A stretch of DNA of 34,829 nt from an uncultured Spirochaetaceae bacterium (GCA_964551205.1 CAZKCQ010000004.1:1-34829), one strand, 5' to 3'; counted from the first letter of the stretch, positions 6,911-29,169 are shown. A program made the numbers and translations. The notes: generated by a model not told the origin, from the sequence alone.

Positions 6911-6932
6911 CGCTCCCTCTTCACACCAAGCA

Positions 6933-7850: not shown

Positions 7851-7856
7851 AATGAG

Positions 7857-7888: not shown

Positions 7889-7924
7889 GCTCATATTAAT
7901 CAAGCGATTTCCAATACAGATAAC

Positions 7925-9277: not shown

Positions 9278-9295
9278 CCCACACCTCCTATAGTT

Positions 9296-9309
9296 TGATA
9301 ACGTTGCCA
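9296..9309. promoter_or_regulatory. LacI-family operator-like palindrome TGATAACGTTGCCA
   Basis: 14-bp CG-centred near-palindrome of the TGnnAACGTTnnCA type. It shares 1 nt with the TATAAT box of the SBP1 promoter. Confidence 0.6.
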
Positions 9310-9339
9310 TTATACTATCATATATTTGCAATTTGTCAA
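9309..9339 (-). promoter_or_regulatory. Candidate promoter of importer copy 1
   Basis: On the minus strand: TTGACA (complement of 9334..9339), 19 nt spacer, TATAAT (complement of 9309..9314). Both hexamers are perfect but the spacer is long. Confidence 0.45.
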
Positions 9340-9347
9340 GAGAATAA

Positions 9348-9361
9348 TGATAACGTAGCCA
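9348..9361. promoter_or_regulatory. Second operator-like site TGATAACGTAGCCA
   Basis: It differs by one base from site 9296..9309. The two centres are 52 bp apart, and this site lies 8 nt upstream of the -35 box. Confidence 0.5.
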
Positions 9362-9372
9362 ATTATCGTTCT

Positions 9373-10206: not shown

Positions 10207-10234
10207 AATTCCTCCTTCATTCTCCGATTAGAGT

Positions 10235-11539
10235 TTATTCTAAACCGAGCCCTTCGATCTTCGAGACAGCCCAAAGCGCTCGGTTTCGAACCGTTGCGTG
10301 CAGGTCGTGAGCTGCTTGCCACAAATGTGGAAGCACCGGCTTGGCGCAGGCAGGGATACTTCCCAGACATTCGGCAGCCAGAAATCGCAGATCCGACTCG
10401 ACATCAGAGAGCATAGACACAAGTGTATCAACTTTGCTCTCTCCTTCTTCGGCAACCTGCCCAAATGACCACAGGGCCGCCCAGCGCGCTTCTATTTCGG
10501 GGTGAGTTACACCCTGGACTTCTTCCATAAATCGGGCCAGCTGCTCCGCAACCTCTGTCCCCCCTTTCCCGGTCCACCCCAACGCCCAGGCAACCCGAGC
10601 CCGAACCGGGCAATCCTTCCGCCCGAGGACGCCGAGGAGCTCCGATACCGCAACTGAAGAGCCATACCCGATCTTACCCAAAGCCTCCGCAGCGGTTCCC
10701 TGAATTTCAGGCTCCTGGTTATGCAGGAGTCCAACGAGAACCGGTATCTGTTTGAAGCCGCTCGGTCCCAGATCACCGATATCCTCGATAGCCTGAACTC
10801 CCAAATCCATTCCATTCTCATTTTTGCTTTTGGCCGCAGAGTCTCCGGATGCTCCTGCATTAAAACCGTCTTGGGGGAGATCCGAGAACAACGGGGACTG
10901 CCCATCCGTTTCTTTCCAGGTTGGTTCAATCTCTCCCAGAGTACGAGCTGCCTGGAAGCGTAGGATGGGGTGCGAATCGGACAGGCACGCTTTTACCAGC
11001 GGTATAGCGGCCTGCGCCGCCCTCCCGATTCTCTGCAGAGCCCAGACCGCAACCAGGCGGTGGGAGACGTCCCGCTGCGCAACAACCCGCATCAGCTGGG
11101 AAACCACCTGCTTCGCCGGAGCGGCGATTTCTCCCAATGCCCAGACCGCAGCCCACGAGGCGTGGGAGTCGACGTCCCATATTGAAGAGATCAAGCGCGG
11201 AACAGCAGCAGATGCCTTCTGGCCCGCTCTTCCCAAAGCATAAGCGACTCGGGCGTTAAAATCAGTTTCGTCTTTTCCCTCCAGCATCTCCGCCAGGATG
11301 GGAATTGCATTACTTTGAAAAGCGCCAATCTTGCCTAAGGCCTCGGCGGCTGTGCCACGGACATCACCATCCCCGTCGGCCAGAAGAGGATGAAGAAGGG
11401 ATAAGAGCTCATCTTCGTTCGGGTACAGCTCTCCAAGCTGCCAGGCCGCTTCCACTCGGCTGAGACGATGTTCTGACCTGGTTTTTCGGCAGATTTCCTC
11501 GAATGTCTCCAAGAGCAATCCTCTGGGGTAATTCTTCAT
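10235..11539 (-). CDS. HEAT-repeat protein, PBS-lyase HEAT-like type (paralogue 1)
   Basis: 434 aa with about 11 repeats of the form D.d..VR..AAeALGkIG....aiP.L (e.g. DGDVRGTAAEALGKIGAFQSNAIPILAEML). Two repeat blocks are split by a low-complexity linker (..SDLPQDGFNAGASGDSAAKSKNENG..). The gene starts 15 nt after the permease stop. Confidence 0.85.
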   Translation of the reverse strand: MKNYPRGLLLETFEEICRKTRSEHRLSRVEAAWQLGELYPNEDELLSLLHPLLADGDGDVRGTAAEALGKIGAFQSNAIPILAEMLEGKDETDFNARVAYALGRAGQKASAAVPRLISSIWDVDSHASWAAVWALGEIAAPAKQVVSQLMRVVAQRDVSHRLVAVWALQRIGRAAQAAIPLVKACLSDSHPILRFQAARTLGEIEPTWKETDGQSPLFSDLPQDGFNAGASGDSAAKSKNENGMDLGVQAIEDIGDLGPSGFKQIPVLVGLLHNQEPEIQGTAAEALGKIGYGSSVAVSELLGVLGRKDCPVRARVAWALGWTGKGGTEVAEQLARFMEEVQGVTHPEIEARWAALWSFGQVAEEGESKVDTLVSMLSDVESDLRFLAAECLGSIPACAKPVLPHLWQAAHDLHATVRNRALWAVSKIEGLGLE

Positions 11540-11554
11540 AAAAGCAACCCGGTC

Positions 11555-12427
11555 CTATTCTTTCAACGAACCGGCTACCAATCCGCGAACCAGATACTTC
11601 TGGCAGAACACGTAAAGCACAATCATGGGGACGATTGCGGTGGACATGCCGGCCATCAGCAGGGGAACGTTGACGCTGAACCGTCCCTTCAGAAGGGTAA
11701 GACCCACCATGATGGTTCGCAGATGCTCCCTCTGCATAAATATCAGTGCAATCAGCAGTTCGTTCCAGACCCACAACGTGCAGACAACCAGAAGTGCGAA
11801 CATCACTGGTTTGGAAAGGGGCACCAAGATTCTCCGCAGAATGCCGAAGCTGCCGCAACCGTCAACCCGGGCGGAATCCAGCATAGCCTGGGGGATGGTA
11901 ATGAAGAAACTTCGCAGCAGATAGATACTGAAAGGCAGGAGCATCCCCGCATAAATTATAATTACCGCCGGGTAGGTGTTTACCAGTCCAAAACGAGACA
12001 TCAGCACGAACAGTGGGATCATCATAACGATCGGTGGGACAACCATGAGAGATATGATGAAATTATGGAGCAATCGTCGGCCTACAAACTTCATGCGGCC
12101 GAGAGCATAGGCGGCAAGACTGCCCGTAACCAGGGTGACCAGCACGGCCCCGGCAGCCAGCAACACGGTGTTGGCGAACCAGCGCAGGAAATTCGGTGCG
12201 TTGAACACCTGCACGAAATTGTAGAGAACGACCTCCCTTGGTAGGGATATCTGGCTCTGGGCATAGGCGACTCGGGTTTTAAAGGAGTTGACGAGTACAT
12301 AGTACACCGGGTAGATCGTCGAAAAAGCCATTAATACCAGAAGGGCTTGCTTTATCCCCTGAGTGAATCCACGGAAAAGAAGGGCACCAATATCCCCTTT
12401 TCTCTTTCGCCTACTCATACTGTTCAC
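11555..12427 (-). CDS. ABC transporter permease, CUT1 MalG-like (importer copy 2)
   Basis: 290 aa. MLDSARVDGCGSFGILRRILVPLSKP and WNELLIALIFMQREHLRTIMVGL. GTG 12427 or ATG 12418 is the start, and either overlaps the 3' end of the upstream permease gene. Confidence 0.9.
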   Translation of the reverse strand: MNSMSRRKRKGDIGALLFRGFTQGIKQALLVLMAFSTIYPVYYVLVNSFKTRVAYAQSQISLPREVVLYNFVQVFNAPNFLRWFANTVLLAAGAVLVTLVTGSLAAYALGRMKFVGRRLLHNFIISLMVVPPIVMMIPLFVLMSRFGLVNTYPAVIIIYAGMLLPFSIYLLRSFFITIPQAMLDSARVDGCGSFGILRRILVPLSKPVMFALLVVCTLWVWNELLIALIFMQREHLRTIMVGLTLLKGRFSVNVPLLMAGMSTAIVPMIVLYVFCQKYLVRGLVAGSLKE

Positions 12428-13319
12428 TCAGTTTCTCTCTGAACCGAAAGGACAGGACTATAAAGGTAATCGTGATAATCAGAAGCACGACTGCAACCAC
12501 GGCAGAGGCGCCCATCTTGTTGAACTGAAAAGCCTGTTTGTAGATGTACAATTCCGATACCCAAGTGCTGTATCCGGGTCCCCCACCGGTCATGACGAAG
12601 ACGTAGGGAAAAATCTGGCTCAACATGGCGATAATATTGATGATCACGAAGAACTCGATCACCGTGGTCAGCTCCGGTACCACGATGCACCACAGCCTGC
12701 GCCACCAGCCAGCGCCGTCGATCCGCGCCGCCTCTAATATTTCCGGCGGCATCGAACCCAATCTGGCGAGGAATAGGACCGTACCGAAACCTATTTCTCT
12801 CCATATAATAATCACTGCTACGGAGAACAGGGACCACGTTGGATGACCGAGCCACTGCCTCTGGAAGCTTTTCAATCCGATCAGTTCCAAAAGCTGATTC
12901 AAACCTCCATGAAGCTTGAAAAAATGGGACATCGCTATGCCGATGGCTACGATCGGAACCACATAGGGAATGAGAAGCAGGCTCCTGTAGAATTTCCAAC
13001 CCCACACCTCCTCATGGAGAAGGACAGCAATTATGAGGGCAATCACTACCATGACGGGTATGGTCAGCAACAGCTCGAAGTTGTGGAGCATGGATTGGTA
13101 GAAGCGGGGATCTTTAAGCACGATCCTGAAGTTTTCAAGCCCGATGAAATCGCCGGGCCAGGATCGCAGGTCGAGAAAACTGAAATGTACTACTTGTACT
13201 ACCGGATACAAATAGATAAATCCGAGAATGAATAACGCCGGCAGCATATACAGATAGGGCTCGATCTTGACGGCCGCCCGATTTCTACTCGATTTATTGC
13301 CTGCTGATCCAGAACTCAC
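12411..13319 (-). CDS. ABC transporter permease, CUT1 MalF-like (importer copy 2)
   Basis: 302 aa. ILEAARIDGAGWWRRLWCIVVPEL. GTG start with AAGGAAGG 6 nt upstream. Confidence 0.9.
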   Translation of the reverse strand: MSSGSAGNKSSRNRAAVKIEPYLYMLPALFILGFIYLYPVVQVVHFSFLDLRSWPGDFIGLENFRIVLKDPRFYQSMLHNFELLLTIPVMVVIALIIAVLLHEEVWGWKFYRSLLLIPYVVPIVAIGIAMSHFFKLHGGLNQLLELIGLKSFQRQWLGHPTWSLFSVAVIIIWREIGFGTVLFLARLGSMPPEILEAARIDGAGWWRRLWCIVVPELTTVIEFFVIINIIAMLSQIFPYVFVMTGGGPGYSTWVSELYIYKQAFQFNKMGASAVVAVVLLIITITFIVLSFRFREKLSEQYE

Positions 13320-13419
13320 CTGCGACCTTCCTTTTCTGCATTTTTATCTAGGGAGAGAACACCTGTTCAACCAAATCGATCTTATCTACCCGATGCTCTC
13401 CGGAACACCCGATTGGAAC

Positions 13420-13444
13420 AGCCCCCTCCTCAGAAGAGGGGGCT
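13420..13444 (-). promoter_or_regulatory. 9-bp GC-rich stem-loop in the SBP2-permease spacer
   Basis: AGCCCCCTC (13420..13428) pairs with GAGGGGGCT (13436..13444) around a 7-nt loop. No U-tract follows on the mRNA. Confidence 0.4.
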
Positions 13445-13484
13445 ATTGTTAATGAGGCATTCTCTCATCAAGAAACAGGTTCTG

Positions 13485-14855
13485 TCACGGTGCAGTCTGT
13501 TTCCATTCCGCTGCTCGTTTTTTGAAGCGCTCCAGCGAGTCCGGATAGTCCGCCCTCCACTGGGCTGCGGCGTTCTCCATGTTCTGGGCTGCCTGCTCGG
13601 CGGTGATCTCTTTGATTGCCAACAATTGAGTTGAAGCCCACACCTCGCTCTCGATCTGAGGAGTGTAGTGCCAGTTGTATGTCGGCCCTGGGATATCGAC
13701 GGCCCACTGCGCAACGATTTTGTCGGATTCGCTCTTGATTAGTGCTGGATTCAGCTGATCGCTGGCCTGCATGGCACCGCTGACCAGATACATTGCAGTG
13801 ATTCTTTCCGGTGTATACATGAAGCGAATGAAGTCCGCAGCCACTTGCGGATGCTTACTCGCTTTGGCAAGGCCTATGGGCATGCTCGGAACCGGCATGG
13901 TCCCGGCCAGCTTGCCGGGCTTGGGGGGCTCGGGTGTCAGCATCGCGCCCACCGTGCCTTCCCCCATCTCCCGAACATAGGCAGCCATCATGGGCTGCAC
14001 GACGAACACCATTCCCGTATCTCCGGCCATGAATTGATCATTGCCCTCGACAAAACCGAGAGAGCCGCAATCGTCGTTGAACAAACCTTGATTGTTGAGA
14101 GTTTCGATCTGTTTCCACCAATCAACGTGCAGTGGATCGGTGAAGCTCGTCTTGCCGACCACCGCATCGTGTAAGTCGGACATATCATCGAAAGCCTGGT
14201 AGCCGAACAAACAGGCCCACCAAACTCCCATGTATCCGTCCTGGAATCCGATGGAAAAGGGAATCGATCCAGAAGCTTTCATCTTTTTCAAGGCTGCTAC
14301 AAACCCGTTCCAATCCTGCGGTGGATTTTGGACGTCTACACCGGCGGCGGAGAAGACCTTCTTGTTGAAAGCCATCAGCCAGGCGTCCATATAGAGGGGT
14401 ACCAGCCAGGTGCGGCCGCTCCAGGATAGCTCCCTCCTAGCCGGGGCAAGCAGATGGGAGAGCTCCTCCTCGGTCCAGAACTCGTCAATAGGCACGATGT
14501 TTCCGGCGGCCGCTTCATCCAGGCCCTCCTGGGGAGACAGGTTTTGTATATCCGGCGGATCACCGGCGGCTACCGCCGCTTTCCAGGTCAAGTAGATATC
14601 TTCGATAGGAATCTCGTGCGGCTCGATGGTGACATTGGGATGCTCTTTGCCGTATAGCTGCGCTGACTCCTTGACCCACTGGGCCATTCCAGGGGCCTCC
14701 GCCTCTCCCCACCAGTGCATCCGAATGGTAACCTTCTCCGCTTCAGCCATCTCTGCCCCAGCGGGCTGTTTCTCCTGTCCGCCTCCTGCAAATGCAACTG
14801 TGGCGATAGTCAGGAGTACATTTACACAGAGAAATAACACAATGCTTTTTTTCAT
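13485..14855 (-). CDS. ABC transporter substrate-binding protein, family 1 / CUT1-type (importer copy 2)
   Basis: 456 aa with signal peptide MKKSIVLFLCVNVLLTIATVAFAGGGQE. GGAGG lies upstream of the ATG. It is the closest paralogue of SBP1 (EKVTIRMHWWGEAEAPGM.., ARRELSWSGRTWLVPLY, MSDLHDAV, TPQIESEVWAS). Confidence 0.9.
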   Translation of the reverse strand: MKKSIVLFLCVNVLLTIATVAFAGGGQEKQPAGAEMAEAEKVTIRMHWWGEAEAPGMAQWVKESAQLYGKEHPNVTIEPHEIPIEDIYLTWKAAVAAGDPPDIQNLSPQEGLDEAAAGNIVPIDEFWTEEELSHLLAPARRELSWSGRTWLVPLYMDAWLMAFNKKVFSAAGVDVQNPPQDWNGFVAALKKMKASGSIPFSIGFQDGYMGVWWACLFGYQAFDDMSDLHDAVVGKTSFTDPLHVDWWKQIETLNNQGLFNDDCGSLGFVEGNDQFMAGDTGMVFVVQPMMAAYVREMGEGTVGAMLTPEPPKPGKLAGTMPVPSMPIGLAKASKHPQVAADFIRFMYTPERITAMYLVSGAMQASDQLNPALIKSESDKIVAQWAVDIPGPTYNWHYTPQIESEVWASTQLLAIKEITAEQAAQNMENAAAQWRADYPDSLERFKKRAAEWKQTAP

Positions 14856-14957: not shown

Positions 14958-16337
14958 CTATCGCCCCTTTATCCGTTTCAGAGCCCAGACGGCTCTGGAA
15001 CGTACGATCGGATGATTGTCCTCTTTCAATACCTCCAGCGCCGCTTCAGCCTGCCCGGCTGCGGGTCCGATATACCCGAGGTTCTCCGCAGACATAGCCC
15101 GCACGTCGGAGTCCTCATCGGCCAGACTCGCGATCAGATCCGGCACGATTTCCTTGCCGAGATAGTCCACCCGAGCCAGAGCCCAGGTGGCGTGATAGCG
15201 GATTTCGAGGTTTCTGTGCTCGCTTCCCGCGTAGTCTCGGAGCTGTTGCCTCAGATGGGGTATTGCCTCCGCAGCTCTAGGGCCCAGCAGCCCTACGGCC
15301 CAGTCGAGGGAGGCCAGCATCTGTGGCCGAGCCTGTAGAAGAAGTGCCACCAGCGCGGTGCTCGCCTGCATCGACGTGACACCGATTTTGGCAACCGCCA
15401 GCGCCGCGCTACCCTGAAGGTGTTCATTCTTCAACAGGGGAAGAAGCTCGGGAATGATCTTCTCAACCGGAGGACCTAGCTCTCCTATAGCTCTGATGCA
15501 ATCCTGCTGGGCGTCCAAATCCCGATTTGCGATCTGTTCCAGGTAGTGTTCGGCTCGTCGAATCCTGCCCGAGTCCCCTGCGGCTCTCCCAGACTCCGAT
15601 ATGATCCCAGGCGCGGATGTTGCGGATTCTTCTGAAATCAATGCAGCGGAAACGATGGCCCGATGGCTGATTTCCGGGCAGGGGTCTGTTTCTGAAAGCG
15701 CGTGCAAAGATGGGAGGGCCGATTCCGCGGCGCTGCCGATTTCACCGAGTGCCCAGGCGGAAAGCTCTCTAACCAGAGGATGAACATCCTGAAGAGACAT
15801 TAACAGCCGAGGCACTGCAGAAGAGGCATCCCTCCCGATCAATCCCAAAGCCTTTGCGGCTCCCCAACGCTGATCGGACAGGTCTTTGTCCAATCCTCTG
15901 GATATCTGTTCGGTAACCTCTGGTGTGTTGATGCCGATCTCCGCCAGTGCCCAGAGAGCCGTATCGTAGGCATGGGTGTTGTCTCGGCGAAGCAGTTCGA
16001 GGAGTGTGGGTACGACCTGAGACGCATTCTTGCCGGCCCGACCCAGGGCGAATATACAGCGGGCTCGTCCCATATCGTCGGTTTCTCGTTCAAGAAGCTG
16101 TATTATGGGTGGGACAGTCTCAGCAGCGAGACAGCCGATTCGTCCGAGGGCTTCAGCCGCCGCCCCTCGGACACTCGGCTCCGGATCGCGGAGAGCCCCC
16201 TTCAACGACGCAATGATTGTGCTGGAGGGATCACATATTTCCCCCAAACGCCAGGCCGCCTCCACCCTTCTCATCGGGTCGGAAGCGGAAAGTTCGTTTA
16301 TCAACACGTCAATCAAATGCTTCTCCCTCAGAACCAC
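14958..16337 (-). CDS. HEAT-repeat protein, PBS-lyase HEAT-like type (paralogue 2)
   Basis: 459 aa with the same repeat type (DPEPSVRGAAAEALGRIGCLAAETVPPIIQLL) and the same two-block layout as 10235..11539. The N-termini are related (RVEAAWRLGEI versus RVEAAWQLGEL). The GTG start immediately follows the TGA of the corrinoid protein gene (TGAGTG). Confidence 0.85.
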   Translation of the reverse strand: MVLREKHLIDVLINELSASDPMRRVEAAWRLGEICDPSSTIIASLKGALRDPEPSVRGAAAEALGRIGCLAAETVPPIIQLLERETDDMGRARCIFALGRAGKNASQVVPTLLELLRRDNTHAYDTALWALAEIGINTPEVTEQISRGLDKDLSDQRWGAAKALGLIGRDASSAVPRLLMSLQDVHPLVRELSAWALGEIGSAAESALPSLHALSETDPCPEISHRAIVSAALISEESATSAPGIISESGRAAGDSGRIRRAEHYLEQIANRDLDAQQDCIRAIGELGPPVEKIIPELLPLLKNEHLQGSAALAVAKIGVTSMQASTALVALLLQARPQMLASLDWAVGLLGPRAAEAIPHLRQQLRDYAGSEHRNLEIRYHATWALARVDYLGKEIVPDLIASLADEDSDVRAMSAENLGYIGPAAGQAEAALEVLKEDNHPIVRSRAVWALKRIKGR

Positions 16338-16988
16338 TCAACTCTTGCCAACAAGTTTTTTGCAGAGGTTGATGGCTCGTAGAGCATCCGGAGCAAACCC
16401 GTCTGATTCAACCTCATTGGCGTACTCCTGGGTAATCGGCGAGCCGCCGACTATGACCTTGGCCTTACCTCCGCTGCCCCGAATGGCCTTGATCGCCGGC
16501 TTCATGGCCAGCATGGTCTGGGTCAGCAGGGCGGATAGGCCGACGATATCCGCCTTGTCCTTGTTAGCTGCATCCACAATCTCCTGGATCTTCGCATTGA
16601 CTCCCAAATCGTTCATGCTGAAGCCCGCAGCCTCGAGCATCATGCTGACCAGATTTTTGCCGATGTCGTGTACATCCCCTTCCACCGTGGCGATGACGAT
16701 CTTCCCAAGAGATTCTCCGCCGCCGGCTTGCTCCCAATACGGTTTCATCAGCTCCGTGGCCGCCTTCATGGCTTTGGCAGACAGGATCACTTCAGGAAGC
16801 CACATCTCGTAGGCTTTGAACCTCTCTCCCACAACATCCATGCCCGCAACCAGACCCTCCTTCAGGACCTTCTGAGGCTCCGTGCCCTTGTCCATAAACT
16901 CCTTGGTTAGCGCAGTTGCCTTCTGTTCATCTCCCGAAATTATCGAAGCTTTCAATTCTTCAAACATGCTGTTGTCCTCCATACTCAT
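16338..16988 (-). CDS. Methyltransferase-cognate corrinoid protein (B12-binding cap + Rossmann domain)
   Basis: 216 aa. An N-terminal helical cap is followed by the B12-binding motif set GDVHDIGKN (DxHxxG), SALLT (SxL) and VIVGG. Size and layout match MtgC/MttC/MtaC-type corrinoid proteins. Confidence 0.9.
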   Translation of the reverse strand: MSMEDNSMFEELKASIISGDEQKATALTKEFMDKGTEPQKVLKEGLVAGMDVVGERFKAYEMWLPEVILSAKAMKAATELMKPYWEQAGGGESLGKIVIATVEGDVHDIGKNLVSMMLEAAGFSMNDLGVNAKIQEIVDAANKDKADIVGLSALLTQTMLAMKPAIKAIRGSGGKAKVIVGGSPITQEYANEVESDGFAPDALRAINLCKKLVGKS

Positions 16989-17011
16989 GATTTCTCTTCT
17001 TTTTGTCCTGA

Positions 17012-18445
17012 TCAGATCTCGAGTTTCAGGCTCTTCTCGAGTGCTTTGTCCTGCTTGGCCCGCTCGTAGATCCTGTCGAGTTCCTTTTTCACATCCCGGT
17101 CAATCTCGTAGCTGTGCTCGGCAACCAGCTTTTGAGCGATCTCCCGCGCCTGCTGGCGAATCGATTTCTGACCCAGCTCGATCCACTGGCCCAGATTCGA
17201 ATGTTCGAACAGTTGAGGCATCCAGTACTCCTTGCGAAACATCTCGTAGGTGCTATTCTTGTCGACATAGGTGCCTCCCGGTCCTACATCGATGATGTCC
17301 TGGATCATCAGACGTTCCTCACTGAACTCCTCTTCCTTGAGGACGTTCCGGATGTACTGCAGCATCTCATCCAGTATCACCACCCATTCACCGCTGTAGA
17401 TCTCTCCGGTCGACAGCAGCCCGCCGCAACGAAAGGCCCTTGCCCCAGCCAATCCCGCGATCAAGGTGTGGATACCCATCTCAGCCGCGGCGTGGGCATC
17501 CGGCTCCTGGGAACTGGTCAAAAGGCTCTTTACGATAATAGGTAGGTCGTAATACTTGCACAGAGCGATCTGATGCAGAGAGTGCTGTACGTACTCCACC
17601 GATCCGTATACGAAGGTGGTGTACTTCATGCTGAAAGTGTTGGCTTCAAAGGCATCGTTGGGGGAGATGTAGTTGTTCCCCTTGGGGTTCATCAGGTACA
17701 GTACGGTCAAGCCAGCAAAATGCTCGTACATGCTCTGCAATACCGTTCCCAGAATGGTTATCGGGGCGGTAACCCCCGCTTGAGGCATGGTTGCCAACCA
17801 CATCGGGATGCCCTTATCCCGCAACCTGAAGGCCACATCGAGGTTGTGCGCGTCGAAGGACTTGGGACTGATCATCCAAATCCCGAAGGTGAAGCGTTTT
17901 CCCGCGGCTTGGGCCATCTCGTACACATAGTTGGCGCACTCGTAGGAGGGCTTATCCATGTGCTCAAAGATGTCGTTGCAGCGGTAACGTGAGTTCTCCC
18001 AGGCCGCTTTGTGCATTAGAATGTGCTGCAGATGCCCTGGCACATCCATCGGTACCACCGGCGCCGAGCCCACTGTGTCCAGGGCATCCCCAAGTTTGAT
18101 AAATTTCACCAGGTCATCAGCCGAGGCCTGTTTCAGCTTCCCCGTATCCAGATCGTAACAGGCGGTCTGATGGGCTCCGGCGGACATGAACCACTTGCCC
18201 CGCTTGTAGTACTCCGGAACATCGTAAACCGCAGCAGCCATGGCTTTCTGAACCAGATCCGGTTTAAATCGCACCATTTCCCCGTCAATTGTCACACCGT
18301 TGTGATCGGCCATCAGCTTCAGAACACCCTCATGGGGGACCTGGATACCGGAGGTTTCGATTAGCCACATGGCTTTTTCGTGCATATAGTCGATCTGTTC
18401 TTTCCGCAAGCCCCCCGCAAGCTCAAAGTTTTCTAATTTCATCAT
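17012..18445 (-). CDS. MttB-family (trimethylamine methyltransferase superfamily) methyltransferase, non-pyrrolysine, paralogue 1
   Basis: 477 aa and uninterrupted, with no in-frame TAG. The N-terminus L..EQIDYMHEKAMWLIETSGIQV...VRFKPDLVQKAM and the C-terminal ..GTYVDKNSTYEMFRKEYW...LGQW fit the MttB-family pattern. AAGGAG lies 5 nt upstream of the ATG. Confidence 0.85.
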   Translation of the reverse strand: MMKLENFELAGGLRKEQIDYMHEKAMWLIETSGIQVPHEGVLKLMADHNGVTIDGEMVRFKPDLVQKAMAAAVYDVPEYYKRGKWFMSAGAHQTACYDLDTGKLKQASADDLVKFIKLGDALDTVGSAPVVPMDVPGHLQHILMHKAAWENSRYRCNDIFEHMDKPSYECANYVYEMAQAAGKRFTFGIWMISPKSFDAHNLDVAFRLRDKGIPMWLATMPQAGVTAPITILGTVLQSMYEHFAGLTVLYLMNPKGNNYISPNDAFEANTFSMKYTTFVYGSVEYVQHSLHQIALCKYYDLPIIVKSLLTSSQEPDAHAAAEMGIHTLIAGLAGARAFRCGGLLSTGEIYSGEWVVILDEMLQYIRNVLKEEEFSEERLMIQDIIDVGPGGTYVDKNSTYEMFRKEYWMPQLFEHSNLGQWIELGQKSIRQQAREIAQKLVAEHSYEIDRDVKKELDRIYERAKQDKALEKSLKLEI

Positions 18446-18478
18446 CTCTTCTCCTTCTCATACCATTATCCTGACGGA

Positions 18479-19906
18479 TTAGTACTGCCGTTCTTTGGCC
18501 AGTGCTTCGTCCTTAGCCGCGATTTCGTAGATCCTGTCCAGCTCGCGTTTTTTCTCCGGCTCGATCTCGTAGGCATGTTCTTTCAAGAGCTTCTTTGCCC
18601 GCTCATTGGCAATCTGTACGAAGCTCTTCGAGCCCATCTCCTGCCACTGTCCCAGATTGGAATGAAGAAATACGTTGGGATCCCAGTACAGGGTTCGGTA
18701 ATGCTTGAAGGTGCTGGGGTGTTCGAGAAAGCTCTCCCCTGGTTTGATCTTGGCAATGGCATCAAACAGCAGCATCTCGTCGCTGAACTCCTCTGGTTCC
18801 AAGACATTTTTGATGTACTGAACGATCTCGTAGTCAAGCACGAGCTTTTCAGCGGCGTACACCTCGGCGCTGGTCAACAGGCCACCGCAACGGAACTCCT
18901 TGGCTCCGGCCAGAGCCGCCATCAACGTGTACATGCCCACCTCCGCTGCACACTGCGCGTCCACCTCTTTAGCTGCTGTGAGCAGTGATTTTGCCGCCAG
19001 CGGCATCTTCAGGTGCTTGTGGATCGACAGCTTGTCAACCGTGGCTCGCACGTCCTCTGCGGAACCGTACACGAAGGTGGAGTATTTCATGTCGAAGGGG
19101 TGGGCGATAAAGCTGTCGATGATCTGGATATAGTTGTAGCTTTTGGTGTTCAGAAGGTTCAGCATGGTAAGACAGGCGTAGGTCTCGAACATGGCCTGCT
19201 GGATCCCCGCCTTTTCGGTAATCGGGGAATTCACGCCCATGATCGGCATGGTGCCGGCCCACATGGGAACGCCCTTGTCTAGAAACTTATCGATGATTTC
19301 CAGCTCCACGACATCGAAGGAACGCGGGCTCACCATGTACAGGCCAAGGGCAAACCACTTGTCGGCGATCTTAGACATCTCGTAGATGTACTCGGCGCAG
19401 CGAACCGTCGGTTTCGGGTCATGCTCGAACATATCGTTCGCCCGGCGCCGCGAGTTCTCCCAGGCAACTTTATGCATCATGATCTCCTGGAGCTGGATCG
19501 GTACGTCCATCGGTACCACCGGAGCCGATCCCACCGTGTCCAGGGCATCACCGATTTTGATCATCTCGACCAAGTCTTTATGGGTGGTTTCCCGGATCTT
19601 TCCTGTGTCCATGTCCAAGATCTTTGTCTGGTGAGCCCCGGCGGAGATCACCCAACCGTCCTCGTAGTAATCGGGCAGAGGGAACCTCATCTCCTGGATG
19701 GCTTTGATCACCAGATCCGTGCGGAACTTCACCATCTGGGAGGTTTTGTCTATGGTGACTCCGTTGATGCCATGCAGGCGGTTGAGCAGTCCCTCGTGAG
19801 GAATGTGCAGGCCGACTGTCTCTACCAGCTCGATCGCTTTGTCCCGCATCAGATCGATCTGTTCGGGCCTCAGACCTCCCGCCAGGGTGTAGGCGTGTAA
19901 CATCAT
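18479..19906 (-). CDS. MttB-family methyltransferase, non-pyrrolysine, paralogue 2
   Basis: The track ORF is trimmed to ATGATG at 19906, which has AGGAGG 8 nt upstream, giving 475 aa. It shares AGAHQT, GDALDTVGSAPVVPMDVP, MHKxAWENSR, MKYxTFVYGS, FRCGGLL and HSNLGQW with paralogue 1. Confidence 0.85.
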   Translation of the reverse strand: MMLHAYTLAGGLRPEQIDLMRDKAIELVETVGLHIPHEGLLNRLHGINGVTIDKTSQMVKFRTDLVIKAIQEMRFPLPDYYEDGWVISAGAHQTKILDMDTGKIRETTHKDLVEMIKIGDALDTVGSAPVVPMDVPIQLQEIMMHKVAWENSRRRANDMFEHDPKPTVRCAEYIYEMSKIADKWFALGLYMVSPRSFDVVELEIIDKFLDKGVPMWAGTMPIMGVNSPITEKAGIQQAMFETYACLTMLNLLNTKSYNYIQIIDSFIAHPFDMKYSTFVYGSAEDVRATVDKLSIHKHLKMPLAAKSLLTAAKEVDAQCAAEVGMYTLMAALAGAKEFRCGGLLTSAEVYAAEKLVLDYEIVQYIKNVLEPEEFSDEMLLFDAIAKIKPGESFLEHPSTFKHYRTLYWDPNVFLHSNLGQWQEMGSKSFVQIANERAKKLLKEHAYEIEPEKKRELDRIYEIAAKDEALAKERQY

Positions 19907-19964: not shown

Positions 19965-20840
19965 CTATCCTTTGATTGCACCGGCTACCAAGCCTTTTAC
20001 AAAATACTTCTGCGTAAATATGTAGAGTAGGAGGATCGGCAAGATCCCGGAAACCAGACCAGCCATTATCGTTGGCACATTGACCGTGTATCGCCCCTGA
20101 AGAAGGGTTAATCCGACCATCAGTGTTCTCAGTTTTTCTCGCTGAAGAAAAATCAAAGATATCAAAAATTCGTTCCAAGCCCATAGCACGTCATAAACCA
20201 CGAGAGTCATAAGCGCAGATGCCGACAAGGGGATCATGATGCTACGATAGATGCGAAAGCTCCCACATCCATCGATTAGCGCAGAATCCAAGATCGATTG
20301 TGGAACGGTGATGAAATAGCTGTACAGCAGGTATACGTTAAAGGGCAACAATACACCGATATAAATTACTATCACACTTATATATGAATTATTCAATCTG
20401 AATCGGCCAAAGAGCACGAAGAGAGGGATAATCATTACAATAACGGGTATCACCATTAAACTGATTACTGAATTTAAGATAAGCCTCTTACCCTTGAATT
20501 CCATTTTGCTGATGACAAATCCTGCCATCGAACTGAAAAATAGACAGAGCAGGACTGAAGCCACGGTAACAATCAACGTATTTGTCAACCATCTTGGGAA
20601 CTTCTCGCCAAAGAACACTTTTCTATAAGCATCGAATACGATTCCAGGCGGTAAACCGATTTTATTCGAATTGTATTCAATTTTCGTTTTAACCGAGTTG
20701 ACAATCACAAAATACAGTGGATACAGCGATAAAATTGTCAGTGTGATCAGGATCAGGTGCTTCACAACACCGGTTCCCAGTTTCTTTGCTCTGCGCAACA
20801 TCCGTTCTGAATCGATGCTCCTACGAACTGCTTTCCTCAC
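19965..20840 (-). CDS. ABC transporter permease, CUT1 MalG-like (importer copy 3)
   Basis: 291 aa. ILDSALIDGCGSFRIYRSIMIPLSAS and WNEFLISLIFLQREKLRTLMVGL. GTG start with AAGGAG 8 nt upstream (AAGGAGAAG 5 nt upstream). It overlaps the upstream gene by 20 nt. Confidence 0.9.
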   Translation of the reverse strand: MRKAVRRSIDSERMLRRAKKLGTGVVKHLILITLTILSLYPLYFVIVNSVKTKIEYNSNKIGLPPGIVFDAYRKVFFGEKFPRWLTNTLIVTVASVLLCLFFSSMAGFVISKMEFKGKRLILNSVISLMVIPVIVMIIPLFVLFGRFRLNNSYISVIVIYIGVLLPFNVYLLYSYFITVPQSILDSALIDGCGSFRIYRSIMIPLSASALMTLVVYDVLWAWNEFLISLIFLQREKLRTLMVGLTLLQGRYTVNVPTIMAGLVSGILPILLLYIFTQKYFVKGLVAGAIKG

Positions 20841-21711
20841 CGATTCTTCTCCTTAGGCGATTCGATGCAAACAACATCAGCAGCGTCATCAATATCAACA
20901 CTACCGCCATCACCAACCCCGCTCCTCTGTCGTTGTAAAGAAAAGACCTCTGATAAATATAGAATTCGGAAACCCAGGTTGCCTTAGCGGGACCACCGCT
21001 GGTGATGACAAAGACAAAACCAAAAATCTGGCTGATCATGGTGATGATGCTGAGAATTACGTAGAACTCGATAACATTCCTCAACTCCGGTACGTATATT
21101 TTCATTACCCTGAGCCACCATCCCGCACCATCCAACAACGATGCTTCCACCGTGTCTTCGGATACCGAACTGAGGCGAGCTATAAACAACACAATGGCAA
21201 ATCCCAGCTCTCTCCATACAATTGCAGTGGCAACAACGGGCAGTGCCAACCTGGGTTTGCCAAGCCAATCACGAACTAGAAAATCGAGTCCCAGAAAACT
21301 CAGAAGCTGATTGAATGCTCCGGAATATTGAAAGAAAAATGAAAACGCAATACCTATAGCGACCAGCGGAACAATATAGGGAACGAACAGCACACTTCTG
21401 TAGAGCTGCGAGCCGACGAGGCGTTCGTGCAGTATCGTTGCGATGATTACGGAAAAAACCAGGATGATGGGAATTACCGCCAACAGTTGGAAGTTATGCC
21501 ATAGAGAGAGATAGAAGTTCTCGTCCCGAAATGCAACAACATAGTTCCTAATCCCAACAAATACTCCGGGCCAAGAACGCATATCGAAGAAGCTTTCCCG
21601 GAACACTTCGATAACTGGATACAGATAGATCAAAAGGATGAGTACGATTGTTGGAAGGAGATATAGGTATGGCTCGAAGCGCGTTCTCTTCAATCCGAAC
21701 GTACTACTCAT
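20821..21711 (-). CDS. ABC transporter permease, CUT1 MalF-like (importer copy 3)
   Basis: The track ORF begins at TTG 21726. I prefer ATG 21711 (MSSTFGLKRTRFEPYLY, compare MSSGS...EPYLY in copy 2). EAA loop TVEASLLDGAGWWLRVMKIYVPEL. Confidence 0.85.
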   Translation of the reverse strand: MSSTFGLKRTRFEPYLYLLPTIVLILLIYLYPVIEVFRESFFDMRSWPGVFVGIRNYVVAFRDENFYLSLWHNFQLLAVIPIILVFSVIIATILHERLVGSQLYRSVLFVPYIVPLVAIGIAFSFFFQYSGAFNQLLSFLGLDFLVRDWLGKPRLALPVVATAIVWRELGFAIVLFIARLSSVSEDTVEASLLDGAGWWLRVMKIYVPELRNVIEFYVILSIITMISQIFGFVFVITSGGPAKATWVSEFYIYQRSFLYNDRGAGLVMAVVLILMTLLMLFASNRLRRRIGEESSS

Positions 21712-21755
21712 AATAAATCTCAACAACGTTGGAAGGTTGTTTCCTATTGACAGGC

Positions 21756-21779
21756 GGGGGTATTGAAAACAATACCCCC
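21756..21779 (-). promoter_or_regulatory. 10-bp stem-loop in the SBP3-permease spacer
   Basis: GGGGGTATTG (21756..21765) pairs with CAATACCCCC (21770..21779) around an AAAA loop. A T6 run (21785..21790) follows only when read on the plus strand. Confidence 0.45.
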
Positions 21780-21811
21780 AGCCGTTTTTTCTACAATTTC
21801 CTCAGACAGAT

Positions 21812-23143
21812 TTACTTGGAATGTTGCATCCAGTCCAAAGCGGTTTTCCGGTATACTTCAACTGCATCAGGATTTTCTCTTCGCCATTTTGCAGCCGATT
21901 CATCCATCTGCCGGGCTGCTTCCTTTGCATCGATTTCACCGACAATTAGCAGTTGCCCGATGCCATAGCTGTCCGCGTCAATCTGGGGTGTGTAATGCCA
22001 GTTGTAGGTAAATGTTGTTGACTCGAGGAACCACTGCGCGTATTGCCTATCCACTTCAGACTTAGCTGAACCCGGTTCGAATAGCGTGCTTGCCTGCATC
22101 GCACCGCTCTTGTCATACAGAGCCTTCACTCTCTCTTTCGTGAGCAGTAATTTCAAGATATCAGCGGCGACATCGGGATGCGGGCCATTGGCCAGGGCCA
22201 AGGGCATCGGCGTGATCGGGATACTACCTGCGACTTTGCCGGTGATGGGGGGTAACGGAGTCTTCATCGCCCCGACCGTGCCATCCCCCATCTGTGCAAC
22301 ATAAGCGGCCGCAACAGGTTGGACTACAAATCCAAAAGCAATATTGCCGGTATAGAAGAGATCGAGTCCTTCGCCCAATCCAATCGAAGCGGCATCTTTG
22401 TTTATATAGCCATTGTCTCTCATCACTTCGATTATTTTCCACCAATCTCCGTGCTTTGGATCGACAAAACGCTGCTCCCCCAAAACTGCCGCATGCAGGT
22501 CTGCTGCGTCATCGAGGCATTGAATCGCGATCGTATTGAAGAGCCATGGGCTCATGTACCCGTCCTGCCAGCCGATACCCAATGGCACTTTCCCGGTTTT
22601 TTTGATCCTTTCAGACATCTCAATGAGCTCATCCCAATTCTTCGGTGGACTCTTGATACCCACATCCGCAAAGATCTCTTTGTTGTATACCATCCCCCAG
22701 GCTTCCATGTATTCCGGAACCATCCACACGTGACCTTCCCAGCCAAGCTCGCGTTGGGCAGCGGGCAAAATTGTATCCACCTCTGCTTTGCTCCAGAAAT
22801 CGTCAATCGGCAGAATATCCCCTGCCTGGGAAGCATCGATCCCCTCTTGTCTTCCCATAAGGATCACATCGGGTGGGTCGCCGGCAGCAACCGCAGCCAT
22901 CCACGATTGTTGAAGATCATCCATAGGGATTTCCGTTGGTTCCACGGTAACGTTCGGATGGGCTTTTTCATAAATCTCGGCGGATTCGTTGTACCAATCG
23001 TTCATTCCCGGTGCAACGACTTCTCCCCACATCCAGATTCTGATATCCACCTTCTCAGTCTCTCCCTGGGGGGTAGAAAACAGTGGGCCGATGGAGCAGA
23101 TCATGCAAATGACGATCAAACTAACCATGATTGTTCTCTTCAT
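21812..23143 (-). CDS. ABC transporter substrate-binding protein, family 1 / CUT1-type (importer copy 3)
   Basis: 443 aa with signal peptide MKRTIMVSLIVICMICSIGPLFSTPQGE. GAGGAGG lies upstream of the ATG. It is collinear with SBP1 and SBP2 but more diverged. Confidence 0.9.
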   Translation of the reverse strand: MKRTIMVSLIVICMICSIGPLFSTPQGETEKVDIRIWMWGEVVAPGMNDWYNESAEIYEKAHPNVTVEPTEIPMDDLQQSWMAAVAAGDPPDVILMGRQEGIDASQAGDILPIDDFWSKAEVDTILPAAQRELGWEGHVWMVPEYMEAWGMVYNKEIFADVGIKSPPKNWDELIEMSERIKKTGKVPLGIGWQDGYMSPWLFNTIAIQCLDDAADLHAAVLGEQRFVDPKHGDWWKIIEVMRDNGYINKDAASIGLGEGLDLFYTGNIAFGFVVQPVAAAYVAQMGDGTVGAMKTPLPPITGKVAGSIPITPMPLALANGPHPDVAADILKLLLTKERVKALYDKSGAMQASTLFEPGSAKSEVDRQYAQWFLESTTFTYNWHYTPQIDADSYGIGQLLIVGEIDAKEAARQMDESAAKWRRENPDAVEVYRKTALDWMQHSK

Positions 23144-23263: not shown

Positions 23264-24409
23264 TCAAATCACTAGGATCGATGGTCGTATCTGAGTCAAC
23301 CCATTCGCACTTCGCTCCGCGTGAGGCCAATTCTTATCATAGGTAATGAACTCCAGCCCGCTTGTTCCCAGCAGATAAACATCCTCCGCCATGACGCCGG
23401 GCAGGGATGGATTCCAACCGATCACGTTGTTCTCCCGCAGCTGGTAGGCGACCCGATCGCCGACCACCTGCTCCCTGGGATGGTAGCCCATGGTGCCGCC
23501 GATAGAGTGGCGCATCCACTCCACTTCTTCCAGGCCGGCGTCCACATAGATCTGGGGCAGCTTCGCGTATATGCTTCCCAAAGTAGTCCCTGCTTTAGCC
23601 AAGGAATTGAGGTGAACAAAAACCGTTTCGATCTTGCGGTTGTTATCCTCCAACTCCGGCGGAGGCGGACCAAAAGAGATTACCCGGTTGATCGGATAGG
23701 TTATCCCGGCTTTCTTGCCAACTCCGCAGAGGGAGAAGTGCTTCCTTATTTTGTTATCCGAGACGACCTGGTGCCTGTACTTCAGAGAACGTTCATCTCC
23801 CCCGATCAGGATAACCGCCACATTGAAACTGTTGAGGAGAAACTGTTTCGAAAGCTCGGCCGCCACCTCCCGTTCGCTCATCCCCGGCTGTACTCCTTTC
23901 GAAACCTTGGTGATGATCGAGGCAGCCTCTGCTCCGTGGCTTCTGAGCCTTTCGATCTCCGGCTCGAGAAATACCTGCCGGAATTCCGCCAAATCACCGT
24001 CGATGTTCAGCTGCTCCGCAACACCACCGACGGGACTATCTACGCCGAGAGGACCCTTTTCCAGCTCCGCGGCTTTCGCACCGACGCCTCCCGAACACCA
24101 GTAGATCATCTCATACTCGAAGGGACAGTGGGAGAACTCCTCATCCATGACGCGGCCGTAATCCCCGTTCTCGGCGATTACGATGGCCCGGTTCTCAGTA
24201 ACCAGGATCCCGATCAGGCTCTCCTGCATGTCGTAGAGAACCTGGTTGTTGCCCCCGGCTGTAAGCCAATAGATATTGTATTTACGGGTGATCAGCGCCC
24301 CGGCCAGTTTTTTACGGGAAAGAATTCCCCGCACCTGCCCAAGCTTGGTCTCCACTTCCCTGGTTAGAACGTTTTTTTCAACCATGCTCTTCTCCTCTTC
24401 CATCCCCAT
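23264..24409 (-). CDS. M24-fold (creatinase/prolidase-like) protein with substituted metal-ligand positions
   Basis: 381 aa. A creatinase-N-like N-terminal half is followed by a pita-bread C-terminal half (..MRHSIGGTMGYHPRE.., ..MAEDVYLLGTSGLEFIT). ATG 24385 is an alternative start. Confidence 0.7.
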   Translation of the reverse strand: MGMEEEKSMVEKNVLTREVETKLGQVRGILSRKKLAGALITRKYNIYWLTAGGNNQVLYDMQESLIGILVTENRAIVIAENGDYGRVMDEEFSHCPFEYEMIYWCSGGVGAKAAELEKGPLGVDSPVGGVAEQLNIDGDLAEFRQVFLEPEIERLRSHGAEAASIITKVSKGVQPGMSEREVAAELSKQFLLNSFNVAVILIGGDERSLKYRHQVVSDNKIRKHFSLCGVGKKAGITYPINRVISFGPPPPELEDNNRKIETVFVHLNSLAKAGTTLGSIYAKLPQIYVDAGLEEVEWMRHSIGGTMGYHPREQVVGDRVAYQLRENNVIGWNPSLPGVMAEDVYLLGTSGLEFITYDKNWPHAERSANGLTQIRPSILVI

Positions 24410-24457
24410 ACCTGTTCTCCAAAAAGCCTTCCATATTCATGCCAGTTTCCGTCCCGC

Positions 24458-25678
24458 TTATTCCAAGGATTCCGCCTCCTCGAGGCGGACTTTAAGATCG
24501 CGCAGAAACTTGGCGGCTTCCACTCCGTCTACAATCCTGTGATCGCAGGCAAGAACCAAACGCATTACCTTTCTGGCCATTATCGCACCGCTTTGCTCAA
24601 ACGTTGGGATGGGAACTATGGCTCCCACCGCCAGAATGGCTGCCTGGCCGGGATTGAGAATCGGGTGGAAAGCCTCGATCCCGAACATTCCCAGGTTGGT
24701 AATGGTGAAAGTGCCTTCTGAGAGGTCTTCCCCGGTCTGCTTTCCTTCCCGTGCTCTGCCTATCAATTCTTCCCGCCGGGCGGCGATCTGCGGCAGGGAT
24801 AATTCCCCGCAGTTTCTTACCACCGGTACCAGCAGTCCTTGATCGGTGGATACGGCAATCCCGATATTGACGGTTCTATGCGCGGTTATCGATGCTTCCC
24901 GGATCGTGGCGTTGAGGCGGGGGTTGTTCTTCAAATCGAGGGCTGCCCCACGAACGAGGAAGTCCGTCACGGTGAGGTGAACGCCCTCTTCGTTTTTATC
25001 ATTTATTTTTTTCCGAACCCGATCCAGCTCGGTAACATCGACGGAAATCTCCAGATAAATGTGGGGCGCATCGAGATAGCTCGTTTTGACCCTCTCAGCT
25101 GCAACCTTTCGCAGACCGGATAGAGGAAGATCTTCCACATCCTCTGAGCTCATTGTCTCCCCCCCAAATTTTGCACCGCTTGACTGGGCGGCGGCCAGGA
25201 TATCCTCCCGGCCGATTCGTCCACCGGGTCCGGTGCCGCTGACGGAGGACAGATCCACCCCCATCTCCGCGGCAAGTCTCCGAGCCAGAGGAGAGGCATT
25301 GATCCGTGCGGGGCCCGAAGAACTCCCTTCCCCATCGGTCGTTGCTTTTACTTTTTCCTGATGCATGGAAGTGTCCGTATCAGAAGTGCGCACAGCAAAA
25401 CGGCTGTCTTCCCCCTCCTCTGCGGCGGGTACTTCATCGTCCTTCTCTCCGATGTAGGCTATGACCGTTTCGACCGGGACTTCTTCTCCCTCCTGTACCA
25501 GGATCTTCTTCAAATACCCTGTATAGAAAGAATCGACGGTGTTGACGGATTTATCGGTTTCGACCTCCAGCAGTGGATCATCCTGCTGCACGAAATCACC
25601 CTCGGCTTTCAGCCATTTCAGGATGGTTCCCGTCTCCATGGTCAATCCAATCTTGGCCAGCTTCACTGCGTTGATCAT
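24458..25678 (-). CDS. 2-oxoacid dehydrogenase complex E2 (dihydrolipoamide acyltransferase)
   Basis: Trimmed to ATG 25678 (406 aa). Lipoyl domain VETDKSV, E3/E1-binding domain ASPLARRLAAEMGVDLSSVSGTGPGGRIGREDI, and catalytic motif DHRIVDG. Confidence 0.9.
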   Translation of the reverse strand: MINAVKLAKIGLTMETGTILKWLKAEGDFVQQDDPLLEVETDKSVNTVDSFYTGYLKKILVQEGEEVPVETVIAYIGEKDDEVPAAEEGEDSRFAVRTSDTDTSMHQEKVKATTDGEGSSSGPARINASPLARRLAAEMGVDLSSVSGTGPGGRIGREDILAAAQSSGAKFGGETMSSEDVEDLPLSGLRKVAAERVKTSYLDAPHIYLEISVDVTELDRVRKKINDKNEEGVHLTVTDFLVRGAALDLKNNPRLNATIREASITAHRTVNIGIAVSTDQGLLVPVVRNCGELSLPQIAARREELIGRAREGKQTGEDLSEGTFTITNLGMFGIEAFHPILNPGQAAILAVGAIVPIPTFEQSGAIMARKVMRLVLACDHRIVDGVEAAKFLRDLKVRLEEAESLE

Positions 25679-25694
25679 GGACGAAGACCTCTGT

Positions 25695-26672: not shown

Positions 26673-26700
26673 ATCAATTCCTCCGCGATGTTCTCCGCAG

Positions 26701-27699: not shown

Positions 27700-27731
27700 A
27701 CTCAACCTCTTACGTGCCGAACGCATCCTGC

Positions 27732-29087: not shown

Positions 29088-29116
29088 GATAGACCTCCGA
29101 TGTTCATCTCTTTGAA

Positions 29117-29130: not shown

Positions 29131-29169
29131 AAATATTGCTGTGATTATCCACGAGTTCGATCTATATTT

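Follow-up and report, generated by a model that had tools for sequence, protein, structure and literature searches.

A stretch of DNA of 34,829 nucleotides from an uncultured Spirochaetaceae bacterium (GCA_964551205.1 CAZKCQ010000004.1:1-34829), referred to below as the window, contains two tandem genes for paralogous methyltransferases of the MttB superfamily, MttB1 and MttB2, followed by the gene for a single corrinoid protein. Enzymes of this superfamily process methylated nitrogen compounds, the outcome being either trimethylamine and methane or harmless demethylation, and to our knowledge six substrate specificities have been established in the superfamily so far. The three genes are closely spaced: the MttB genes are separated by 33 nt, and the corrinoid gene follows MttB2 after 23 nt. 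The coordinates of these and all other features are collected in Table 1, and the loci and contigs of related organisms are designated by L numbers.

Both methyltransferases were identified by their matches to the Pfam MTTB family (PF06253, COG5598). MttB1 matches the model from end to end (E value 2.1e-47), and residues 13-465 of MttB2 cover model positions 34-497 of 500 (E value 1.8e-50). The ATG start codon of MttB1 is preceded by AGGAGG, and the orthologue in L001 aligns with the protein from residue 1. An exact-sequence look-up for MttB2 returned no record, whereas those for a permease and for the TPR protein of the window were successful. The two proteins are 52% identical over 472 residues and have in common the blocks AGAHQT, GDALDTVGSAPVVPMDVP, MHKxAWENSR, MKYxTFVYGS, FRCGGLL and HSNLGQW; all of these blocks had been quoted, and the identity estimated at roughly half, in a preliminary description of the window that was made from the sequence alone. 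That description had also classed the two uninterrupted reading frames as non-pyrrolysine members, and it is clear that neither contains an in-frame TAG. This codon terminates 11 of 28 genes in the window and is thus an ordinary stop codon there. When aligned with HMMER, the pyrrolysine of Methanosarcina MttB (7xcl) falls on the second Leu of KSLLT (L309 in MttB2), a position for which Leu or Thr had been proposed. With the model for pyrrolysine-containing MttB (TIGR02369), MttB2 scores 184 bits and MttB1 163 bits, as compared with a cut-off of 525. As to the corrinoid protein, both of its B12 domains were confirmed, and the sequence GDVHDIGKN, already noted in the preliminary description of a single such protein beside both MttB genes, represents the DxHxxG His-on motif. 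Among the NCBIfam models it fits those for MtgC best, with scores under their cut-offs; with TIGR02370 it scores 174 bits, under the cut-off of 215. MttB1 and MttB2 are, then, non-pyrrolysine MttB-superfamily paralogues beside one corrinoid protein.

A protein search for relatives yielded 259 clusters at E values of 1e-10 or lower, nearly all of them metagenomic, and a scan of one genome per species yielded 22 loci, mostly in Spirochaetota genomes and some in Actinomycetota. The nearest relative, at 90% identity, is L003, a cold-seep Spirochaetales genome. A neighbour-joining tree was constructed with all of the MttB copies of the scanned loci. The MttB1 and MttB2 proteins of the window fall in separate clades of that tree, each of which holds one pair member from L003, L004, L005, L006, L007 and L009. 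Since each clade contains one member per locus, the phylogeny indicates that the paralogues stem from one old duplication, which predates the spread to two phyla, and that genomes of Spirochaetota and Actinomycetota have retained them as a tandem. The sister clade contains tandem pairs of its own as well as single copies. Identities to orthologues are 74 vs 77%, 89 vs 90% and 92 vs 93% for MttB1 and MttB2, respectively, which corresponds to an equal evolutionary rate. In a comparison of 24 MttB1 and 37 MttB2 orthologues, 142 positions were conserved and identical across both groups, and 13 were conserved but different between them. In L018, a complete Spirochaetota chromosome, an intact MttB1-type gene and a corrinoid gene are situated between decayed MttB remnants (8651-9127 and 11492-11614).

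The pair is distant from the members of the superfamily with which it was compared. The proteins of the window are 22% identical to MtgB, the glycine betaine methyltransferase, 25-26% identical to pyrrolysine-containing MttB and 20-23% identical to the Sinorhizobium protein 4yyc; as yardsticks, the corresponding values for MtgB itself are 45% with 4yyc and 31.5% with pyrrolysine-containing MttB. The ligands of glycine betaine in MtgB are Y97, R312, H348 and F356 (PMC13080624). In a profile alignment to 9yce, these residues align with Ala91, Ile304, Arg339 and Gly347 of MttB2, and MttB1 has Ala opposite both R312 and F356; position 347 (Ala vs Gly) is one of the 13 fixed differences between the orthologue groups. 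Three of the four ligands are replaced, and a basic residue is kept only at the H348 position. The Arg equivalent to R312 is reportedly retained by MtcB, MtpB, MthB and MtyB (PMC13080624), and its absence sets MttB1 and MttB2 apart from those enzymes, as judged by their published description. An AlphaFold2 model of MttB2 (predicted local distance difference test score, pLDDT, 68; predicted template-modelling score, pTM, 0.71) had 9yce, 2qne, 4yyc and 7xcl as its top Foldseek matches, with E values from 1e-18 to 1e-22 and template-modelling (TM) scores of 0.66-0.70. The model is about equally close to the MtgB, 4yyc and MttB structures, and the predicted fold is a TIM barrel of the MttB/MtgB type. 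Taken together, the identities to MtgB, pyrrolysine-containing MttB and 4yyc, the replaced ligands and the absent Arg argue that the pair lies outside the characterised clades, in a deep-branching, uncharacterised one. The preliminary description had allowed for a place inside a characterised MttB clade with conserved substrate-binding residues; identities of 20-26% and the loss of three MtgB ligands speak for the opposite.

It was of interest to examine the window and its surroundings for the partners that such enzymes require. Pfam scans of the 30 large open reading frames (ORFs) of the window revealed no PF00809 (pterin-type), PF01208 (URO-D) or RACo/RamA domain, and a tblastn search of the window with the URO-D protein of a relative gave no match. 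Sixteen recorded contigs, however, contain the permease P1d of the window. L029 matches positions 30069-34829 with 100% identity, and L028 and L030 match over 11.3 kb with 99.97-99.98% identity. To the right of the window, these three contigs contain the rest of a binding-protein gene and then a gene for a 365-aa URO-D protein (PF01208, E value 7.5e-14), the 3′ end of which lies 1296 nt beyond position 34829. A URO-D-superfamily gene is present at the locus of all relatives for which enough flanking DNA was available. It is situated between the E1 beta and E2 genes of a dehydrogenase complex in L001/L005, L004, L020 and L027, and directly upstream of MttB1, beside a divergent LacI gene, in L006/L025, L009, L022 and L026. 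The slot that it occupies in the relatives is vacant in the window and in L003; its presence beyond the right end in near-identical contigs indicates that the gene has been relocated to the head of the locus in this genome. Replacement of URO-D by a HEAT-repeat protein in this lineage was also considered, and was rejected because URO-D is still present and merely relocated.

No RamA/RACE activase was detected in the window, in the 1.6 kb to its left, in the 9.6 kb to its right or within 10 kb on either side of the relatives' loci. The idea that an activase is hidden in the left flank was discarded, as that flank encodes a P-type cation ATPase. The DUF1638 protein encoded within the window is a candidate helper of cobalamin reactivation. 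In α-Proteobacteria, the fitness phenotype of DUF1638 is rescued by methionine, and its phylogenetic profile almost coincides with that of a RamA-like activase, to which DUF1638 is tied by fitness data from Phaeobacter and by co-occurrence (PMC5764234). In Ruegeria, DUF1638 and RamA are induced together (PMC12478193). Moreover, RamQ of Eubacterium limosum is encoded apart from the MttB-family genes that it serves (PMC12155760), and MtaA and RamM of Methanolobus vulcani are unlinked to mtgBC (PMC6855144). The earlier statement that no second methyltransferase or reductive activase is recognisable in the window therefore stands, but not the suggestion of a pathway that lacks them, since URO-D is encoded 1.3 kb outside, DUF1638 is encoded inside, and unlinked activases and second methyltransferases are normal. 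That partners seem to be lacking is due for the most part to where the window ends and to the normal separation of activase genes. It had further been supposed that canonical partners immediately outside the window would make this a standard betaine system. A candidate partner is indeed found there, but URO-D is not the canonical pterin-type methyltransferase II, so that the locus is not a standard betaine system either.

All of the large genes in the window except one are carried on the minus strand. A co-directional array of 24 genes, with gaps of no more than 186 nt, extends from the GFO/IDH/MocA oxidoreductase gene (GFO; 30332) to the DUF1638 gene (5315), in the order GFO, M24a, E1 alpha, E1 beta, E2, M24b, ATP-binding cassette (ABC) importer set a, MttB1, MttB2, corrinoid protein, HEAT1, ABC set b, HEAT2, NifX-like, ABC set c and DUF1638. 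Beyond DUF1638 are genes for a TPR protein, an SDH-type protease and an EamA transporter, and an ISNCY transposase fragment.

Table 1. Features of the window and its left flank. Positions are counted from the first nucleotide of the window unless a contig is named.
Feature	Position	Strand	Basis and remarks
MttB1, non-pyrrolysine MttB-superfamily methyltransferase I, 475 aa	18479..19906	-	PF06253; MttB1 clade in tree
MttB2, paralogous MttB-superfamily methyltransferase I, 477 aa	17012..18445	-	PF06253; structure match
Cognate corrinoid protein, 216 aa, B12-binding cap and Rossmann domain	16338..16988	-	PF02607 + PF02310
HEAT-repeat protein 1 (HEAT1)	14958..16337	-	HEAT_2, E value 4e-46; zero gap after corrinoid gene stop codon
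HEAT-repeat protein 2 (HEAT2), 34% identical to HEAT1	10235..11539	-	Pfam; directly after HEAT1 in L038
Protein with N-terminal NifX/NifB-like (Nitro_FeMo-Co) domain; other 170 aa match nothing	9373..10206	-	PF02579, E value 1.4e-10; after HEAT genes in L038
DUF1638 protein, candidate helper of cobalamin reactivation	5315..6043	-	PF07796, E value 2.7e-22; same block in L038
GFO/IDH/MocA oxidoreductase, M24a, E1 alpha, E1 beta, E2 (lipoyl), M24b (creatinase-N + M24)	23264..30332	-	Pfam, NCBIfam
E1 alpha, E1 beta and lipoyl-bearing E2, pyruvate/acetoin-type 2-oxoacid dehydrogenase	24458-27726	-	Pfam, NCBIfam
M24b, very divergent M24 ('pita-bread') hydrolase-like protein	23264-24409	-	Pfam
M24a, very divergent M24 ('pita-bread') hydrolase-like protein	27732-29087	-	Pfam
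ABC importer set a (SBP_bac_1 binding protein and two permeases), directly upstream of MttB1	19965..23143	-	Pfam
ABC importer sets b and c, interleaved with HEAT2 and NifX-like gene	6071..14855 (c 6071-9250, b 11555-14855)	-	Pfam
ABC importer set d: binding-protein 3′ end (34502-34828), permeases P1d and P2d	32663-34829	-	Pfam
Zn-dependent alcohol dehydrogenase (Zn-ADH)	31609-32637	-	Pfam
LacI-family repressor, divergent from the long operon	30520..31575	+	LacI and Peripla_BP domains; RbsR/PurR-like (NCBIfam)
Putative LacI operator, perfect 14-bp palindrome, 17 nt upstream of GFO start	30349..30362	.	Motif scan
P-type cation ATPase, 5′ end only; gene continues beyond left edge	1-385 (L032:9787-11784)	-	Left-flank contig

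The genes from GFO to M24b accompany the MttB pair in conserved synteny at loci of Spirochaetota and Actinomycetes. By NCBIfam, the E1/E2 proteins are pyruvate-dehydrogenase-like, GFO is weakly IolG-like and the alcohol dehydrogenase is weakly Tdh- or IolM-like; no E3 gene is present nearby. M24a and M24b are mutually unrelated in sequence, and both are conserved at the locus across two phyla. A PDB sequence search produced nothing for M24b and one weak prolidase match for M24a, and neither has a close solved structure. The window contains four paralogous ABC importer sets of the sugar type (SBP_bac_1), and no ATPase gene was observed there for them. Set a adjoins MttB1 in L031 and L036 as well. 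Set d is the orthologue of the transporter found 3′ of the corrinoid gene in relatives (79-88% identity to the binding protein, P1 and P2 of L001), and the binding protein encoded after the corrinoid gene in relatives resembles binders of xylo- and chito-oligosaccharides. Between sets b and c the identity is 55-60%, and in front of each lies a HEAT gene, an arrangement suggestive of a segmental duplication. The mechanically called ORF of binding protein c (7925-9484) overlaps the NifX-like gene by 112 nt; as the alignment of orthologues starts near 9250, the true start is probably there. The ISNCY-family fragment (1259-1957), at the downstream end of the locus, and integrase-like remnants after HEAT1 in L003 (13575-14465) hint at recent rearrangement.

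HEAT1 is situated directly 3′ of the corrinoid gene in the window and in L003, L036 and L038. The last of these derives from a different species, the DUF1638 protein of which is 86% identical, and its gene order is MttB, MttB, corrinoid protein, HEAT1, HEAT2, NifX-like, ABC set c, DUF1638, TPR and protease. The sole difference in order is the extra ABC set b between the HEAT genes of the window. Divergence is faster in the HEAT genes (63-72% identity) than in the genes around them (85-94%), and a metagenome scan with HEAT1 retrieved two loci only. It may be, and this is a guess, that the block from 5315 to 16337 of the window (L038:3159-10729) represents an accessory set for cofactor handling.

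A LacI gene flanks the locus in L003, L006/L025, L009, L022, L026 and L027, and the putative operator for such a repressor, TGGCAACGTTGCCA, has a copy with two mismatches at 9296-9309, upstream of binding protein c. At two mismatches or fewer, 2 sites were found in the window, as compared with 0.09 expected. The same motif occurs before GFO or M24a in L003, L005, L020 and L027, and directly before MttB1 in L007. Its conservation at promoters of the locus, including that of MttB1 in L007, indicates that the MttB pair belongs to a LacI-type regulon. A search of Rfam at the gathering threshold revealed no riboswitch or other RNA in the window, and promoter and terminator scans performed no better than on shuffled sequences. 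As far as can be judged from the predicted functions of the genes, the context of the locus suggests that the substrate is carbohydrate-like and probably contains nitrogen. Rhizopine or pinitol-type cyclitols, glycerophosphocholine, mycosporine-like amino acids, creatine and ectoine were considered as substrates and dropped, there being no evidence that discriminates among them.

These data lead us to favour, with some reserve, the view that the genes encode that half of a three-component cobalamin-dependent methyltransferase system by which methyl groups are captured, and that they belong to a catabolic operon under LacI control in an uncultivated spirochaete of marine sediment. One or more of the carbohydrate-type ABC importers would take up the methylated substrate or substrates. 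MttB1 and MttB2, as TIM-barrel enzymes of the methyltransferase I type, would each methylate the Co(I) of the one His-on corrinoid protein to methyl-Co(III); they would act separately, on methyl donors that are different but related. A second methyltransferase would pass the methyl group on, and the candidate for this step is the URO-D-superfamily protein encoded past the right end. Co(II) arising by accidental oxidation would be repaired by an ATP-dependent activase encoded elsewhere, possibly aided by the DUF1638 protein. The M24 hydrolases, the GFO and Zn-ADH dehydrogenases and the E1/E2 complex would degrade the demethylated skeleton. What the data show are the identities of the genes, the age and synteny of the tandem pair, the URO-D gene outside the window and the operator; the direction in which methyl groups flow, the separate action of the paralogues, the part played by URO-D and the class of substrate are inferred.

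Several points weigh against this interpretation. The clade is further from MtgB and from pyrrolysine-containing MttB than those two are from each other, so that even an N-methyl class of donor is an extrapolation. The strict conservation of the tandem arrangement fits a heteromer as well as two separate enzymes. The URO-D protein is very divergent, scoring 35 bits with the MtaA/CmuA model against a cut-off of 235. A PDB search with its single sequence found nothing, and a profile of six orthologues matched CdmB, a chloromethane methyltransferase I, with an E value of 6.7e-7 and MtaA, a methyltransferase II, with an E value of 0.006. The zinc-ligand His of MtaA is a Phe in the URO-D protein, the neighbouring Cys being retained. 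The characterised methyltransferase II enzymes of bacteria are all pterin-type (PMC13222342), which renders the role of URO-D as second methyltransferase uncertain. Finally, the region upstream of the URO-D gene yielded no LacI operator.

An alternative view of the pair, possible though doubtful, is that MttB1 and MttB2 together form a single methyltransferase I, as subunits of an obligate heterodimer or hetero-oligomer. The age of the pair, its invariable adjacency and fixed order with the 33-nt spacer, and its equal rates are in keeping with this, as are the tandem pairs of other sub-clades (L011, L014, L016 and L017); in the MtgB dimer, furthermore, each C-terminal extension lines the pocket of the partner (PMC13080624), which would make a heterodimer structurally easy. 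On the other hand, a single copy with a corrinoid gene exists in the sister clade (L021), with further single copies in L010, L012, L015 and L024, and the one intact MttB1-type gene kept with its corrinoid gene beside decayed copies in L018 argues that one copy can function alone. Homo-oligomers are the working form of all characterised MttB members, and the full conserved core is retained by both paralogues. The same conservation bears on the notion that one paralogue is catalytically dead, whether as a regulatory or as a decaying copy, which we regard as very improbable: the 13 fixed differences, one of them at a ligand-aligned position, would be compatible with it, but both proteins are full length and equally conserved across species, and the 142 shared conserved positions include every family block.

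The evidence on URO-D, for its part, could be read to mean that this protein is a substrate-specific methyltransferase I, for example for an O-methyl or another methyl group carried by a sugar-like compound. In that case the MttB proteins would serve a second donor or the opposite side of the corrinoid cycle, and the locus would comprise three donor-side enzymes, with the true methyltransferase II encoded elsewhere. The characterised bacterial UroD-superfamily members (CdmB, MtvB, OdmB, VdmB, CmuA and MecE) are methyltransferase I enzymes (PMC13222342, PMC9768040), and the better profile match to CdmB than to MtaA, the Phe at the zinc-ligand position and the carbohydrate-like context of the locus would agree with such a role. 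It is nonetheless judged unlikely, as URO-D, an MttB-family protein and a corrinoid protein together make up the archaeal glycine betaine:coenzyme M set, in which MtaA is the methyltransferase II (PMC6855144), and as no pterin-type gene was found within 10 kb at the loci of annotated relatives. There is very little to recommend an ordinary glycine betaine system of the MtgB type, or another characterised quaternary-amine system, that has merely been duplicated. Such a system would account for the family, MttB, and for the MtgC models as best NCBIfam matches of the corrinoid protein, but the latter scores under the MtgC cut-offs, identity to MtgB is just 22%, and the equivalents of Y97, R312 and F356 are replaced, including the Arg kept by MtcB, MtpB, MthB and MtyB (PMC13080624). 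In place of a BCCT/OpuA-type betaine transporter, none of which was found at the locus, there are LacI and sugar-type ABC systems. A bolder proposal, which at present we consider rather improbable, is that the paired deep-branching MttB clade demethylates a carbohydrate-like or glycosylated compound instead of a classical betaine, with the divergent URO-D and with the two HEAT proteins, the NifX-like protein and DUF1638 as lineage-specific, putative cofactor-handling proteins. Methylated sugars, cyclitols and amino-sugar derivatives are examples of what such a substrate might be.

The clade of the MttB pair appears to lie outside the six established specificities and to have a different pocket, and it occurs in genomes of Spirochaetota and Actinomycetota that derive from sediments (marine, vent and other). 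The conserved neighbours (sugar-type importers, M24 hydrolases and E1/E2) provide a concrete set for expression, and the LacI repressor a ligand probe. Should URO-D prove to accept the methyl group, it would be the first methyltransferase II with that fold known from bacteria to be paired with an MttB enzyme. If the substrate is carbohydrate-like, the MttB superfamily would extend past simple quaternary amines, and fermentative Spirochaetota and Actinomycetota of sediments would possess a cobalamin-dependent route into such substrates.

Several known systems resemble the one described here. In the MtgB-MtgC-MtgA glycine betaine:tetrahydrofolate system of Desulfitobacterium hafniense (2QNE, 9YCE), a non-pyrrolysine TIM-barrel methyltransferase I likewise adjoins an MtgC-like corrinoid protein, and MtgB is among the best structural matches (TM 0.66-0.68). 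The window differs from it in the low identity and the three replaced betaine ligands, in having two paralogues in place of one, in a clustered partner of the URO-D type in place of the pterin-type MtgA, and in its sugar-type transport and regulation. The MttB-MttC trimethylamine system of Methanosarcina barkeri (7XCL, 7XCN) has the same fold and family, and its MttB gave the best E value in PDB sequence searches (1e-21 with a single sequence and 1.7e-32 with a profile). In contrast to that enzyme, at 25-26% identity, the proteins of the window have Leu for pyrrolysine; they come from a bacterium in which TAG serves as a normal stop codon, and a coenzyme M pathway is absent from their context.

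In Methanolobus vulcani the methyltransferase I of MtgB-MtgC adjoins the corrinoid protein, the methyltransferase II is of the URO-D family and the activase is unlinked (PMC6855144); its acceptor, however, is coenzyme M and its MtaA has a zinc site, whereas the URO-D protein described here is without the zinc-ligand His and the host is bacterial. MtpB, MtcB, MtyB and MthB of E. limosum, with RamQ, are also non-pyrrolysine MttB members with a corrinoid carrier, their substrates are diverse, and their activase is encoded separately from the methyltransferase I genes (PMC12155760, PMC8604678). By their published description, and unlike the pair studied here, these enzymes keep the Arg equivalent to R312 (PMC13080624), and their methyltransferase II is pterin-type. 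The glycine betaine cluster of 'Ca. Formimonas warabiya' DCMF also has several MttB genes and fewer corrinoid genes (three methyltransferase I, two corrinoid and one methyltransferase II genes; PMC9768040). That cluster, however, is betaine-type, belongs to an acetogen-like Firmicute and has betaine transporters, with none of the LacI, sugar ABC, M24 and E1/E2 context. The locus thus belongs to a known kind, the three-component corrinoid methyltransferase systems, and it is set apart by the deep-branching, conserved and uncharacterised MttB pair, the unusual carbohydrate-type context and the candidate URO-D partner.

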